Sequence record: NC_022968.1
Source of the DNA: Escherichia phage 4MG
Direction: 5' to 3' (one strand)
Length of the DNA stretch: 64,000 bases
The notes under the pieces are model-generated. The model saw only the letters and a program-made list of their open reading frames with translations. It was not told the DNA's origin and searched no databases. How positions within the stretch are numbered: position 1 is the stretch's first letter; each line of letters opens with the position of its first letter. The position numbers and the translations under genes are program-made. Below, in pieces: positions 56,932 to 63,266 of this stretch.

Positions 56932-57621
56932 GTGTCTGGAGATCGCTGGATTCTGTATCGTCAACAGCATGAGCTTGGGTTTTATGAGCTTAAACTCTGC
57001 CTGAACAGTGGTGATGAGTGGGCGTATGCCCCTATCATCTCTCTTGGCTCTGGAAGCCAACAGGCAGATTTTGCTGCTGAGGATTATTTTAAAAGGTCTT
57101 TACCTTTGCTAGGAGAAGAGGGCTACGACAGAAGTATAGACCTGAAGCAGAAGAGAAGCTATGTTGAGGTGGAGACAGACACACAACGCAGACACCTTAG
57201 TTTTATCGAAAGGGGAATATTCCCCTTTGGTGAATGGGCGGGTGTTGCTTTCGAGGACTGTCCCCCACCCCTGCTGTTGTGGTATATCAACGGGGGTGAT
57301 TTTGATAACCTCAAAATTTCTTGCTCTCTGAAGGCAGCGTGTCTTGGTGCGTATCTTTCAATTCAGGATCGTGCTGATTATTACAAACCATCAAGGGACA
57401 AGGTGAGTCTTTCTGGAACCATATTACGCTGTGAAAGGTTCAGAGAGATGTACAGCGTTCATATGGTAACAGAAGACAGGAATTACTTGACCTTCCTGAG
57501 CAAGACACAATACGAATGTGGTGATGAGGCCTGTTTTAATGGCTACATTATTGAGAACATGGAATGGGGTGGTATCTGCTACAATCGTGGTTCTTCTAAA
57601 AAACCTGCTAAAAACATTTGA
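56932..57621 (+). CDS. hypothetical protein
   Basis: GTG start after CTAAGGGGGCGTT. Confidence 0.45.
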   Translation: MSGDRWILYRQQHELGFYELKLCLNSGDEWAYAPIISLGSGSQQADFAAEDYFKRSLPLLGEEGYDRSIDLKQKRSYVEVETDTQRRHLSFIERGIFPFGEWAGVAFEDCPPPLLLWYINGGDFDNLKISCSLKAACLGAYLSIQDRADYYKPSRDKVSLSGTILRCERFREMYSVHMVTEDRNYLTFLSKTQYECGDEACFNGYIIENMEWGGICYNRGSSKKPAKNI

Positions 57622-57646
57622 CAGCCTCTTCGGAGGCTGTTAATCT
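57618..57646 (+). promoter_or_regulatory. sigma70-type promoter whose spacer is a hairpin (may also act as a weak terminator)
   Basis: TTGACA - GCCTCTTCGGAGGCTGT - TAATCT. Confidence 0.4.
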
Positions 57647-59219: not shown

Positions 59220-59732
59220 ATGACGATTGAATTAAAACTGGACACAGCGGCAGTAGAAAAGCTTTTCCCAGAGGGGACAGAACTGCGTGTAAACCTACAA
59301 CAATCTGTGGTGAACAATATCGCCAAGCGGATTCTTGATCGCGATATCTCTGTTCGCCTGGAAACCTTGATCCGTACCCATGTGGCGCATGAGTGCGGCA
59401 TGATGGACCTGAATACCCTGGTCAAGAATGCTCTTGATGCACACCTTGAGAAAACTGGCTGGCATGATCACCGTCTTAAGGATAGCACCACCTCACAGAT
59501 CCGTGAATTGGTTAAGAAAAAGGTGCAACAGCTTGCGGATTCAGAAATGCAAAAGATCATTAACGATACCCTTTCTCGTTCTACCAATACGATGAAGGAT
59601 ACCCTTGATCGCCATATCGACAATGCGCTTCAGGATGTGGAAAAACACATCGCTACACGCCTTAACCAGAAATTCGCTGCGGTTGTTGATGCTGCGATTG
59701 CTGCTAAACTCGGTATGGAGGTGAAGAAATGA
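59220..59732 (+). CDS. hypothetical protein
   Basis: RBS GAGGAGTTGTAT. Confidence 0.5.
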   Translation: MTIELKLDTAAVEKLFPEGTELRVNLQQSVVNNIAKRILDRDISVRLETLIRTHVAHECGMMDLNTLVKNALDAHLEKTGWHDHRLKDSTTSQIRELVKKKVQQLADSEMQKIINDTLSRSTNTMKDTLDRHIDNALQDVEKHIATRLNQKFAAVVDAAIAAKLGMEVKK

Positions 59733-60223
59733 GCTTCAAATACAAAGTTGGTGACCTGATCGAAGCGGTCAAGAATGGTGAGGTTAATGTTTTTGCGCAT
59801 GGCTGCAACTGTTTTTGCACAATGGGTAGCGGTATCGCACCACTGATCAAAGAAGCGTTTCCGAAAATGTACGCTGCGGATCTGAAGACCGAGAAGGGTG
59901 ATAAGCATAAGCTTGGAACCTACACAATGGCCTTCCTGAAGGACGGCGAAGCTGCTGGTTTTAATCTGTATTCGCAATATGGCTATAATCGCCGTAAACA
60001 GGGCCTCAGGGACCTCGATTACAATGCCCTGTATGATTCGTTGGATTTGATGAAGAAGGCCTTACAGAGCTTTACAGACGGTTCTGTGGCTGACTACAAA
60101 ATCGGCTTCCCTAAAATCGGTGCTGGTCTTGCAGGCGGCGACTGGAACGTCATCGAAGCGATGATCAAGTCCGTGTTTTGGGATTGCGATGTCACAATCT
60201 ACATCCTTCCGGAGAAAAAGTGA
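59729..60223 (+). CDS. macro domain protein (ADP-ribose binding or hydrolysing)
   Basis: VFAHGCNCFCTMGSGIAPLI and IGFPKIGAGLAGGDW match the two glycine-rich macro-domain motifs; ATGA overlap. Confidence 0.55.
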   Translation: MSFKYKVGDLIEAVKNGEVNVFAHGCNCFCTMGSGIAPLIKEAFPKMYAADLKTEKGDKHKLGTYTMAFLKDGEAAGFNLYSQYGYNRRKQGLRDLDYNALYDSLDLMKKALQSFTDGSVADYKIGFPKIGAGLAGGDWNVIEAMIKSVFWDCDVTIYILPEKK

Positions 60224-60411
60224 TGTTCGTGATAATCTATTTGGCTATGTGGGTTCTGGCAACAACTGTATTCATCAGGCGCTGGCAGCGTCAGTTTGGA
60301 AGGGTTGATGCCTTTATCTTGGTATCGGCTATCTTTGCAGGGTTCTTTTGGTTCGCATACTTCCCGATTTTGGTAATCCTTCGCTTAATAAACGGAGACT
60401 GGAGATCATGA
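60223..60411 (+). CDS. small membrane protein
   Basis: Two hydrophobic segments; overlapping start. Confidence 0.4.
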   Translation: MFVIIYLAMWVLATTVFIRRWQRQFGRVDAFILVSAIFAGFFWFAYFPILVILRLINGDWRS

Positions 60412-60608
60412 TCGAATTAAAAGATGGTATGGTTGCACATACTAAAAAGATCGACCTTCATGTCGGTAATACGGTGTTCACCTATAACGCCCCTCGTGGT
60501 CAGAGCTTTGCTATCCTACTCCTTGGTGCAGAGAAGCCAAGTGGTGACGGCACTGGTATCCAGATCGATGAGTGGCTGAAGAATCGCGGTTGGAAACTGG
60601 AGGACTAA
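60408..60608 (+). CDS. hypothetical protein
   Basis: Trimmed start. Confidence 0.45.
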   Translation: MIELKDGMVAHTKKIDLHVGNTVFTYNAPRGQSFAILLLGAEKPSGDGTGIQIDEWLKNRGWKLED

Positions 60609-60850
60609 TGTATTATAAACATAAAAGCGCAGACCAGCAGAAAGAATTATTCGCTATTTTGGATACGGATAACAACTCTTTCTGGTTCTCAGGTATGAAT
60701 CGTGTAGCATATTCATCCTCTGGGATTGCAAAGACAGCGTTCTCTTCCAGCGCGAAAAATCCTCTCCGCTGCAAGTTCGGAGAACAGACTCGCTTTAAGA
60801 TTGTTCGCGTAGCGATTACACCAGAGGGGATTATTGCTCATGAGGTATAA
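60608..60850 (+). CDS. hypothetical protein (paralog pair, copy 1)
   Basis: Shares D-T-x-FW-x-G-x-AW/Y-x-S-xG-AK-xA...RxK...Q-TR-x-V-V pattern with next gene. Confidence 0.5.
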   Translation: MYYKHKSADQQKELFAILDTDNNSFWFSGMNRVAYSSSGIAKTAFSSSAKNPLRCKFGEQTRFKIVRVAITPEGIIAHEV

Positions 60851-61088
60851 AAAACGACTTGACACAGTTTTCTTAATCTTCGATACTGAGGACGGTATTT
60901 TGTGGAGTCATGGGCCAAAGGCTGCTTGGATAAGTACCGGGGCAGCAAAGAATGCCTGGAACTTATGCTCTAAGTCATACTATGACGACAAAGGCGACCG
61001 CATAAAACCGAAGTTTGACGATCAAACGCGTTATGTCATCGTTGAAATTCATGAAAATTTTGTTAGAAATCTTGTAGAGGAGAAATAA
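60840..61088 (+). CDS. hypothetical protein (paralog pair, copy 2)
   Basis: Tandem duplicate of previous gene. Confidence 0.5.
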   Translation: MRYKKRLDTVFLIFDTEDGILWSHGPKAAWISTGAAKNAWNLCSKSYYDDKGDRIKPKFDDQTRYVIVEIHENFVRNLVEEK

Positions 61089-61475
61089 ATGACTATGAGT
61101 AAATCTTTGGGCCAAACTACCCCTGCACAGCCTACAGAAATTGGGGGTAAGCGTTTCGCTGGTATCCTGCGTGATGTGGAACCGTTCTTCGGTTTCGGTA
61201 CGCATAAAGAGGTTCGTTGCATCTATGGTATCTTGGGCCGTGACCACAAAAACCGTGGCTTTGATGGTGGGCCGGTCCGTACTTCTGTTGTGCAGGATCT
61301 GATTGTCCATGAAGGTGATATTTATGCTATCACTATGAATAGCGCCTATCTGCTGGAAAGCGTACAGCTTCAGCATTTTATCGCCAGCGATATTTGGCGT
61401 GATGACATTGCCAAGCTCATTGCTCTCGCAATGATTGGTCAGGCAGCAAAGAATGAGGAGTCTAAAATTGACTAA
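61089..61475 (+). CDS. hypothetical protein
   Basis: ORF. Confidence 0.45.
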   Translation: MTMSKSLGQTTPAQPTEIGGKRFAGILRDVEPFFGFGTHKEVRCIYGILGRDHKNRGFDGGPVRTSVVQDLIVHEGDIYAITMNSAYLLESVQLQHFIASDIWRDDIAKLIALAMIGQAAKNEESKID

Positions 61476-62514
61476 ACCTATTAAGTACCCAAGCACCAAC
61501 CAGTTCCGTCAGGTTATTAAGGCGATTCATGATCGCCTGACCTTTGATGGTATTGATGAGAATGGAAACATCAAGCGCAAGGTTGTTGCGCCAGATCAGT
61601 ACCTGATCCCGTACATCGGTACAGTTAAGATCCACGGGACCAACGGCAGCATTGTCTTCCACTCTGAAGATGAGGTTGTTTTCCAGTCCAAAGAGCGTAT
61701 CGTTCAGGTTGGGGATGACAACAACGGCTTTGCTGCGTTCATGACCCGTAAAGATACCAAAGAGCTTCTGGAGCAGGTCAAGTACCTGTGTGAATGCAAT
61801 GACACACCATTCTCTTTCCCAGTTGAGATCGCTGGTGAGTGGGCTGGTCGCGGTATCCAGAAAGGCGTTGCTGTAAGCGAAGTTGAGCCGTTCTTCACGA
61901 TCTTCCGTGTTGCGGTTGGTCGCAATGAAGAGGGAAATTCCCTGAACTGGATGCCACCAAACTTCCAGTACGGCATTGGCCTGCCACAACAGCGGATCTT
62001 CAGTGTTCTTGACTTTGGTTTCTGGTCTGTGCAGATCCCATTCAACGAACCTGAACTGGTACAGAACGATCTGACCACACTGACGATGCAGGTTGAAGCC
62101 TCCTGCCCGGTTGGGAAACACTTCGGCGTTGAAGGTGTTGGTGAAGGCATTGTGTGGTCTCCTCTGCAACCTGAACTGGCTAAAGACTCCGGTCTGTGGT
62201 TCAAGGTGAAAGGCGAGAAGCACTCTGTGTCTAAGGTGAAAACTCTGGCTGAAGTTGACCCAGTACGTCTTCAGAACATGCGTGAGTTTGTTGACTACGC
62301 TGTGACTGAGAATCGCCTTGAGCAGGCTCTTGGTGAGGTTGGTCTCGACCAAACCAAGATCGGTGAGTTCATCGCATGGGTTAGTCGTGACATCAACAAG
62401 GAAGAAGGCGATGTTCTGGAAGCTAACTCCCTGACCATGAAGGATGTTGCGAAGTTCATCAGTAACAAATCTCGTGGCTGGTACATGCAGAAACTGAACG
62501 AGAGTCCACTGTAA
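61468..62514 (+). CDS. Rnl2-family RNA ligase
   Basis: VKIHGTNGSIV (motif I KxHGxN) and AGEWAGRGIQKG parallel T4 Rnl2 EKIHGTNFSL and FGEFAGPGIQKN as recalled; TTG start after GAGGAG. Confidence 0.6.
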   Translation: MTKPIKYPSTNQFRQVIKAIHDRLTFDGIDENGNIKRKVVAPDQYLIPYIGTVKIHGTNGSIVFHSEDEVVFQSKERIVQVGDDNNGFAAFMTRKDTKELLEQVKYLCECNDTPFSFPVEIAGEWAGRGIQKGVAVSEVEPFFTIFRVAVGRNEEGNSLNWMPPNFQYGIGLPQQRIFSVLDFGFWSVQIPFNEPELVQNDLTTLTMQVEASCPVGKHFGVEGVGEGIVWSPLQPELAKDSGLWFKVKGEKHSVSKVKTLAEVDPVRLQNMREFVDYAVTENRLEQALGEVGLDQTKIGEFIAWVSRDINKEEGDVLEANSLTMKDVAKFISNKSRGWYMQKLNESPL

Positions 62515-62699: not shown

Positions 62700-62847
62700 T
62701 CATTTTGTTCGCGATAAGCACACGGGTAGAGTTATGAGAATCACCGATGTGCAATGGCAAGATGGTTGGTGTTATTCTTTTGATATGTTGGGTTGGCGTT
62801 TGTACCCAGAAGAGGATTTAGAGCCAATTGTTCCGATGCGTGGGTAA
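62668..62847 (+). CDS. hypothetical small protein
   Basis: Trimmed ORF. Confidence 0.35.
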   Translation: MQQTEPKFEVNHFVRDKHTGRVMRITDVQWQDGWCYSFDMLGWRLYPEEDLEPIVPMRG

Positions 62848-62875
62848 GCTTAAGGATTTATTAAGAGGAGAAAGT

Positions 62876-63238
62876 ATGGTAAAATCGAATGTTATTACTA
62901 TCAATGGACAGACCATTGTCAATGGTAGTATTAATTTCAATGGTGACCTGAACATCACCTCGAATGGAGATAACGTCTTCATCAATGGTGAACTTGTTCA
63001 CACCACACAGGAAAAGAACATCACTGTCGTTATTAACGGTGACACTAAGGGGATCAGCACAGTCTCTGGTGATGTCAACGTATACGGCACAGTGGCTGGT
63101 AACATCAAAACCACCTCTGGTGATGTTCACGTTGAAAACGGCGCACTTGGTGACGTTACCACAGTGTCCGGAGATGTACGTGCAAAAACAATAGAAGGCA
63201 ATGTAAAAACTGTCTCAGGCGATATCTCCCGCCGTTAA
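62876..63238 (+). CDS. repeat protein with beta-helix-like periodicity (bactofilin-like?)
   Basis: Repeated SGDV/NGxx units; RBS AAGAGGAGAAAGT. Confidence 0.5.
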   Translation: MVKSNVITINGQTIVNGSINFNGDLNITSNGDNVFINGELVHTTQEKNITVVINGDTKGISTVSGDVNVYGTVAGNIKTTSGDVHVENGALGDVTTVSGDVRAKTIEGNVKTVSGDISRR

Positions 63239-63243
63239 TTGAT

Positions 63244-63266
63244 AGCCCCTGCCCTGGGGCTTTTTA
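63244..63266 (+). terminator. rho-independent terminator
   Basis: GCCCCTGCCCTGGGGC followed by TTTTT. Confidence 0.7.

Follow-up and report, generated by a model that had tools for sequence, protein, structure and literature searches.

Two overlapping small genes of Escherichia phage 4MG belong to one conserved phage protein family and evolve under purifying selection

A stretch of 64,000 nucleotides (nt) of Escherichia phage 4MG (NC_022968.1), referred to here in its entirety as the window, contains two adjacent small genes, A and B. A preliminary description made from the sequence had presented them as tandem paralogues that arose by an old duplication and had added that in phages such a duplication often marks genes under diversifying selection, for instance inhibitors of variable host targets. 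The two genes and their junction are as follows.

60608 to 60850, plus strand: gene A, ATG at 60608, TAA at 60850, encoding 80 amino acids (aa; MYYKHK...), A-type subfamily of phrog_8277
60840 to 61088, plus strand: gene B, ATG at 60840, TAA at 61088, encoding 82 aa (MRYKKR...), B-type subfamily of phrog_8277
60840 to 60850, plus strand: overlap of 11 nt between the end of A and the start of B, ATGAGGTATAA, read off the sequence

The ATG of gene A overlaps the TAA of the preceding gene (TAATG, with one A in common) and the TAA of gene B abuts the ATG of the next gene. The overlap between A and B, which is also called in L009-L011, Cronobacter phage GAP31 and Enterobacter phage EC152, represents the tight packing that is typical of translationally coupled phage operons. 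GGAGG is found 6 nt 5' of the start of gene A and GAGGGG is found 5' of the start of gene B. The program-made list of open reading frames (ORFs) starts both genes further upstream, at GTG/TTG codons, but orthologues that are annotated or called in GAP31, EC152 and three Logan contigs have the same ATG starts. The coordinates in the preliminary description are correct for both genes. A and B are real, expressed-looking genes, as they have called orthologues in many phages, ratios of nonsynonymous to synonymous substitution (dN/dS) far below 1, visible ribosome-binding sites, and start/stop overlaps.

The motif that had been described as shared, DT..W..G..A[W/Y].S.G.AK.A ... KF..QTR..IV, is present in both products. 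Smith-Waterman alignment (BLOSUM62, gap 11/1) gives 20 identities in 62 columns (32%) and a score of 79, whereas shuffled sequences scored 22.8 +/- 4.3 and none of the 5000 scored as high (z = 12.9), so the similarity that the preliminary description proposed to check by pairwise alignment is significant and not due to chance. The match is also obtained with phmmer (E = 2e-8) and with blastp at word size 2 (E = 4e-9). Default BLASTP reports no alignment because the default word size does not seed one. When the profiles of the A-type and B-type orthologues are compared, hhalign returns a probability of 99% (E = 3.9e-18). No DNA-level repeat is left between the two genes, and no third copy of the family is present in the window. 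Several independent tests on the sequences thus agree that A and B are paralogues.

Both proteins match phrog_8277, A with E = 3.6e-31 (residues 1-80 on profile positions 1-82 of 87) and B with E = 3.6e-33 (residues 1-82 on profile positions 5-82 of 87). An exhaustive profile search that covered 1.8 billion representative proteins, clustered at 50% identity, found 275 family clusters at E <= 1e-3, 37 of these at E <= 1e-10. A word-indexed protein search gave only one near-identical protein, and the exhaustive hidden Markov model (HMM) search was needed to recover the family. Two hits in the HMM search, P0092 and P0139 (1933 and 1314 aa), were discarded as spurious, being low-complexity or FG-GAP-like repeat proteins. 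Nearly all of the family members are 60-100 aa long, all 113 aligned members match phrog_8277, and all names given in the sources read "hypothetical protein". Family matches were absent from 72,556 plasmids and from complete E. coli genomes, and in ten sampled clusters no member was located on a contig above about 150 kb. Searches of Pfam, NCBIfam and PDB sequences with A, B, the 113-member alignment, and the extended members from Pseudomonas phages gave nothing above threshold, and a Pfam search of the family members gave no family at E <= 0.1. Two candidate domains were rejected: the Rep3_N / WH1 replication-initiator domain, which matched only B, and this over 40 residues (14.2 bits, below the Pfam gathering threshold of 22.4; E = 0.06), and a HicB-antitoxin-like C-terminus in the fused member P0141, a likeness that was supported neither by hmmscan nor by a phmmer search of the PDB. 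Searches of the literature on phrog_8277, PVP-SE1 gp235 and Vequintavirinae early-gene transcriptomes turned up nothing about these genes.

The consensus of the 113 sequences is Y.I.DT....W.....K..W...GAAKNAW.......F..Q.RY.I. In the numbering of B, the tryptophan at position 30 is conserved in 94% of the family, A36 in 98%, K37 in 91%, and Q62 in 97%, and position 27 is lysine or arginine in 99%. These core residues are near-invariant across phages of Enterobacteria, Erwinia, Pseudomonas, and Aeromonas. B has all of the core family residues (K27, W30, A36, K37, F59, Q62, and R64), while A has R27, Y30, A36, K37, F59, Q62, and R64, the tyrosine at position 30 being found in 4% of the family. 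The two types can be told apart by their motifs, GAAKNAWNL in the B-type and G.AKTAFSSS..NPL.C.F in the A-type. A is changed at four family-conserved positions (K27R, W30Y, N38T, and W40F), has an N-terminal extension in the orthologue alignments, and lacks the C-terminal helix. Residues 44-57 of B form a variable insert, and residues 72-81 its extra C-terminal helix. With a median isoelectric point (pI) of 8.8, the family as a whole is mildly basic. B carries a net charge of +1 (pI 7.8) and A a net charge of +4 (pI 9.5). A DNA-mimic or acidic decoy inhibitor similar to Ocr, ArdA or AcrIIC5 was considered and rejected, as A, B and the family are neutral to basic and not strongly acidic.

An AlphaFold2 model of B, built from a deep alignment, has a predicted local distance difference test score (pLDDT) of 95.9 and a predicted template modelling score (pTM) of 0.80. 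The model consists of strand beta1 (residues 9-15), an irregular beta-hairpin (20-30) that carries K27 and W30, helix alpha1 (33-43) that begins with G-A-A-K-N, a variable loop with a mini-hairpin, strand beta4 (65-71), ahead of which lie F59, Q62 and R64, and the C-terminal helix (72-81). When searched against BFVD the B model retrieves PVP-SE1 gp236 (E = 8e-7, TM 0.71-0.80) and also gp235 of the same phage (E = 2e-3, TM 0.60-0.73). These matches, for which B alone was the modelled query, suggest a common fold for the A-type and B-type subfamilies. The predicted alpha/beta fold of B has no significant structural neighbour outside its own family and no relative in the PDB. No nucleotide-signal sponge (Acb2, Tad1, Tad2 and similar) was among the listed PDB matches, although the lists were not checked specifically for sponges.

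Selection on the two genes was estimated gene-wide by pairwise dN/dS (NG86), with the following results.

Gene A, window group against GAP31 group: dN/dS 0.035-0.05, at dS of about 1
Gene B, GAP31 against LNA4 or EC152: dN/dS 0, with dN = 0 at dS 0.06-0.18
Gene B, window against Logan contigs: dN/dS 0.08, a close pair
Gene B, window group against GAP31, LNA4, and EC152: dN/dS 0.14-0.17, at dS of about 1.5-1.8, near saturation
Gene B, window group against Klebsiella phage K18: dN/dS 0.27-0.31, with synonymous sites saturated

A and B are each under strong purifying selection in these pairwise, gene-level comparisons. The diversifying selection that had been proposed is not supported by the gene-level values, which are 0.035-0.05 for A and 0-0.17 for B when the saturated K18 pairs are left aside. 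The idea of inhibitors directed at variable host targets fares no better, because core polar and aromatic residues that are near-invariant across phages of different hosts point to a conserved target rather than a variable one.

B is nevertheless the more divergent of the two genes when the window is compared to GAP31. Protein identity is 95% for A (GAP31_010), 96% for the macro-domain protein upstream, and 97% for RNA ligase 2 (Rnl2) downstream, as opposed to 63% for B (GAP31_009) and 58% for the phrog_16099 protein encoded immediately downstream of B. The low-identity region can be delimited as a patch of about 0.6 kb.

60860 to 61460, plus strand: mosaic patch relative to GAP31, from sliding-window nucleotide identity and per-gene protein identities

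Within the patch nucleotide identity drops from about 85% to some 45-70%, and it recovers to about 90% in the RNA ligase gene; the edges of the patch are close to the A/B border and to the border between the phrog_16099 gene and Rnl2. Since the divergence of B extends to the downstream gene, it appears best explained by exchange of a two-gene cassette (B and the phrog_16099 gene) rather than by fast evolution in place. Further mosaic patches relative to GAP31 were observed at 59320-59650, 60230-60400, and 62700-62900. Overall, the patches have about 35-70% nucleotide identity within surroundings of 85-98%, with edges mostly near gene borders, a pattern that reads as classic module exchange in an accessory region. 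An exact direct repeat of 14 nt, GGCAGCAAAGAATG, is found at 60941-60954 and 61442-61455. In B it encodes the G-A-A-K-N motif of the family, and in the downstream gene it encodes a C-terminal "QAAKNE", a motif that GAP31 does not have there. Both copies fall within the mosaic patch, one roughly 80 nt inside its left edge and the other roughly 10 nt inside its right edge, and by estimate about 0.003 such repeats would be expected by chance in 1.3 kb. The repeat could be a recombination microhomology or a coincidence.

The phage is a Seunavirus-like myovirus of the Vequintavirinae. The DNA of the locus is about 85-90% identical to the Seunavirus phages LNA4, GAP31 and EC152 of this subfamily, and a query with the full 2.9 kb locus found no deposited phage at >= 95% identity. 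A near-identical locus is present on a 142.5 kb Logan contig, where B is 99% identical to P0001. The B allele of the window has only 50-63% identity to any B copy in the deposited phage genomes, and its only near-identical relatives (99%) are in unannotated Logan assemblies. In Salmonella phage PVP-SE1 (gp235/gp236) and in GAP31 (gp010/gp009) the gene order, the tandem pair, the start/stop overlap, and the flanks are the same as in the window, and none of the records examined, all of which list "hypothetical protein", marks the two genes as paralogues. A and B are new alleles of a catalogued, uncharacterised family, and Seunavirus genomes already deposited contain the pair without remark.

Both copies are found in PVP-SE1, GAP31, LNA4, EC152, and Klebsiella phage K18PH07C1. 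The Erwinia Henunaviruses Hena1 and pEp_SNUABM_01 have only the A-type in the same slot, and most Klebsiella Mydoviruses, e.g. KB57, have only the B-type. Tandem pairs are confined to the Seunavirus-like lineage, and every other locus examined has a single copy. A neighbour-joining (NJ) tree of 121 family members over 70 columns places A and B in separate clades, each of which is well populated, and the two clades are not shown as sisters. As the Erwinia phages have retained only the A-type and most of the Klebsiella phages only the B-type, the simplest history would be one old tandem duplication in an ancestor of these genera of the Vequintavirinae, after which some lineages lost one copy or the other, and on the distribution of the two types the duplication appears to predate the Seunavirus radiation. 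The old tandem duplication of the preliminary description is upheld in this respect, the two genes being adjacent, homologous, in separate clades, and kept as a pair across Seunavirus-like phages. In the record of Klebsiella phage vB_Kpn_K18PH07C1 (OY978784.1, 5558-9785), tRNA genes and pseudo-CDSs are annotated on the opposite strand over a conserved block in which A and B are intact. The feature table of OY978784.1 appears to be out of register with its sequence.

A and B are part of a plus-strand block in which the order of the genes is macro-domain protein, small membrane protein, phrog_8770, A, B, phrog_16099, and RNA ligase 2. This order is common to GAP31 and PVP-SE1, with the endolysin and rIIA further on, and small differences in gene order are found in Henunavirus and in KB57, which is without phrog_16099. 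The principal neighbours in the window are listed below.

59729 to 60223, plus strand: macro-domain protein (PF01661, E = 4e-5), annotated in relatives as "phosphatase" (Tk.4-like)
60408 to 60608, plus strand: 66-aa gene, phrog_8770, kept at this position in all Vequintavirinae loci examined
61089 to 61475, plus strand: 128-aa gene, phrog_16099, "methyltransferase" in related records, diverging together with B
61468 to 62514, plus strand: RNA ligase 2 (RnlB-like), PF09414

The phrog_8770 product is not a member of the family to which A and B belong. The phrog_16099 protein has no sequence match in Pfam, NCBIfam or the PDB, and for this reason the name "methyltransferase" looks unsupported. In the Erwinia Henunaviruses this protein has an extra N-terminal region of about 50-75 aa. 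Further downstream, 62876-63238 on the plus strand encodes a 120-aa protein of repeated "G(D/N)V.." units, for which a bactofilin-like match (E = 0.003) was below the cut-off. Its homologue is annotated as a "tail protein" in GAP31, yet the gene is in the accessory region next to the endolysin. A strong GC-rich hairpin of 11 pairs with T-runs on both strands is found at 57618-57643. It looks like a bidirectional intrinsic terminator and may mark the start of the plus-strand block that bears A and B. A second terminator-like hairpin (63244-63261) is located just before the endolysin (SleB-like) gene. A sigma-70-like site inside B (60859-60887) was rejected as a promoter candidate because such sites occur at chance level (10 found, 11.2 expected). 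ARAGORN found no tRNA genes in the 64 kb window.

Relatives outside the Vequintavirinae include extended members of about 150 aa in about 120 Pseudomonas Pakpunavirus-type phages. In PaP1 (gp101), PAK_P2 (gp066), and PAK_P4 (gp066) these proteins are 145-153 aa long and, unlike the pair in the window, single-copy. Their match to the family (HMM E about 1e-12) is in the N-terminal domain, where the K..W...GAA.AW and Q motifs are found. In addition they have an insert that is long and a C-terminus extended by about 50 aa, for which no family was detectable. Like the window pair they are located among nucleic-acid enzymes, in this case an exonuclease, an HNH endonuclease, a metallophosphoesterase, and a polynucleotide kinase. 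A family member in an Ounavirinae phage is found near an exonuclease, an endonuclease, a phosphodiesterase, and a kinase, and on metagenomic contigs the neighbours are DNA ligase, denV, Thy1 and primase-helicase, or else a ribonucleotide reductase, an AAA_33 kinase, or a thioredoxin together with DUF3310. The macro-domain and RNA ligase 2 flanks of A and B, taken together with the Pnk/AAA_33 kinase neighbours of distant members, lend the neighbourhood what may be a loose RNA-repair flavour. An RNA-seq study of PAK_P4 assigned gp080-124 to the early region and gp001-034 to the late region (PMC5563952). The homologue in this phage, PAK_P400066 (read as gp066), is outside both of these regions (PMC5563952).

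It is proposed that A and B are accessory factors of a nucleic-acid-metabolism module that bind a conserved ligand. This is the likeliest role, put forward tentatively, and it is suggested by the gene context, the purifying selection, the neutral-to-basic charge, and the invariant Lys, Trp, Gln, and Arg residues beside the N-terminus of a helix. Each protein would form a single compact alpha/beta domain made up of beta1, the beta-hairpin, alpha1, the variable loop, and beta4, with alpha2 added in B. K27, W30, the G34-A-A-K37-N segment at the helix N-terminus, Q62, and R64 would form the putative binding site, and possible ligands are nucleic acids, nucleotides, and conserved enzymes that take part in nucleic-acid metabolism. 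The proteins would act within the middle, or DNA/RNA-metabolism, module of the phage and not as arms-race inhibitors. The two copies may have subfunctionalised, with B keeping the canonical motif and having the insert and the C-terminal helix, and A having conservative replacements and the N-terminal extension.

The explanation as a whole, in which A and B are real and ancient tandem paralogues under purifying selection that serve as conserved-ligand accessory factors, is given slightly better than even credence and has to be weighed against several others. It is vanishingly improbable that the similarity of the two proteins is a product of chance or composition, or that the ORFs are not genes; the silence of default BLASTP would fit this, but it is answered by the shuffling test (z = 12.9), the E values of 4e-9 (word size 2) and 2e-8 (phmmer), the match of both proteins to phrog_8277 (E about 1e-31 to 1e-33), the hhalign probability of 99%, and the purifying selection seen in both genes. 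A more substantial challenge concerns the duplication itself, as illegitimate or modular recombination may have juxtaposed two already divergent members from different phage lineages. The NJ tree does not group the A and B clades as sisters, B ranks only 15th of 120 among the nearest relatives of A and A ranks 69th of 120 among those of B, the region is mosaic with B exchanged independently of A, and either type occurs in single-copy lineages. However, the 70-column tree has little resolving power, and the adjacency, the orientation, and the common slot between phrog_8770 and phrog_16099/Rnl2 in all Vequintavirinae examined are explained more simply by duplication and losses, so that juxtaposition is rather unlikely. 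The model of the preliminary description, in which the duplication came out of an arms race and both copies inhibit variable host targets and diversify rapidly, could draw on the lower identity of B to its GAP31 orthologue (63%, compared to 95% for A), the variable-length insert of B between alpha1 and beta4, and the location of the genes in a mosaic accessory region. It is improbable in view of the dN/dS of 0.035-0.05 for A and 0-0.17 for B (GAP31 and LNA4 have dN = 0 at dS = 0.16), of core polar residues that are near-invariant across phages of very different hosts, and of a divergence that B has in common with the next gene and that has boundaries near gene borders, which argues for cassette exchange.

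A role in defence evasion is also conceivable without an arms race, if the proteins acted against a conserved immunity element as a nucleotide-signal sponge or as an inhibitor of a widespread nuclease, with the paralogues covering two related targets. RNA-repair-type enzymes such as RNA ligase 2, Pnk, and macro-domain proteins counter host nucleases in T4. Enzymes of these three types are neighbours of the family, its members are small, phage-restricted, and widespread across unrelated phage lineages, and the invariant aromatic, Lys, Gln, and Arg residues would suit nucleotide binding. This alternative is considered unlikely, as the distant PAK_P4 homologue is outside the early host-takeover region and the proposal itself comes from sequence and context. 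A bolder reading, which we regard as a long shot, would make phrog_8277 a new small alpha/beta fold that uses its patch of invariant K, W, K, Q, and R residues to bind a conserved ligand, either a nucleotide or a nucleic acid, the Seunavirus pair representing two specificities or an obligate heterodimer. The ligand could then be a nucleotide that signals in immunity or an end of RNA or DNA that has been damaged, and the family, if this were true, would be a class of phage proteins for counter-defence or as accessories of repair that is widespread and has so far gone unrecognised. The explanation that we favour, ancient paralogues acting as accessory factors, has points against it as well. The neighbourhoods are heterogeneous with no single recurring partner and may reflect just the general layout of phage early and middle genes, and the putative ligand binding by the conserved patch is read from residue types. 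The 70-column NJ tree is poorly resolved and does not make the A and B clades sisters, so that tandem duplication is not strictly separable from recombinational joining and independent acquisition keeps some probability.

The wider interest of these results is in the family, which is large and strongly conserved and for which a fold is predicted very confidently, no relative having a solved structure. At 50% identity it falls into about 275 clusters, and it is distributed across many virulent phages of Proteobacteria. Two genes that were listed as "hypothetical" are now linked as paralogues and placed in one large phage family, and the arms-race reading of the pair can be dropped. The small, conserved proteins of this family are good candidates for structural and functional work, and the phages with one or two copies (Henunavirus, Mydovirus, and Seunavirus) provide a ready-made comparative system.
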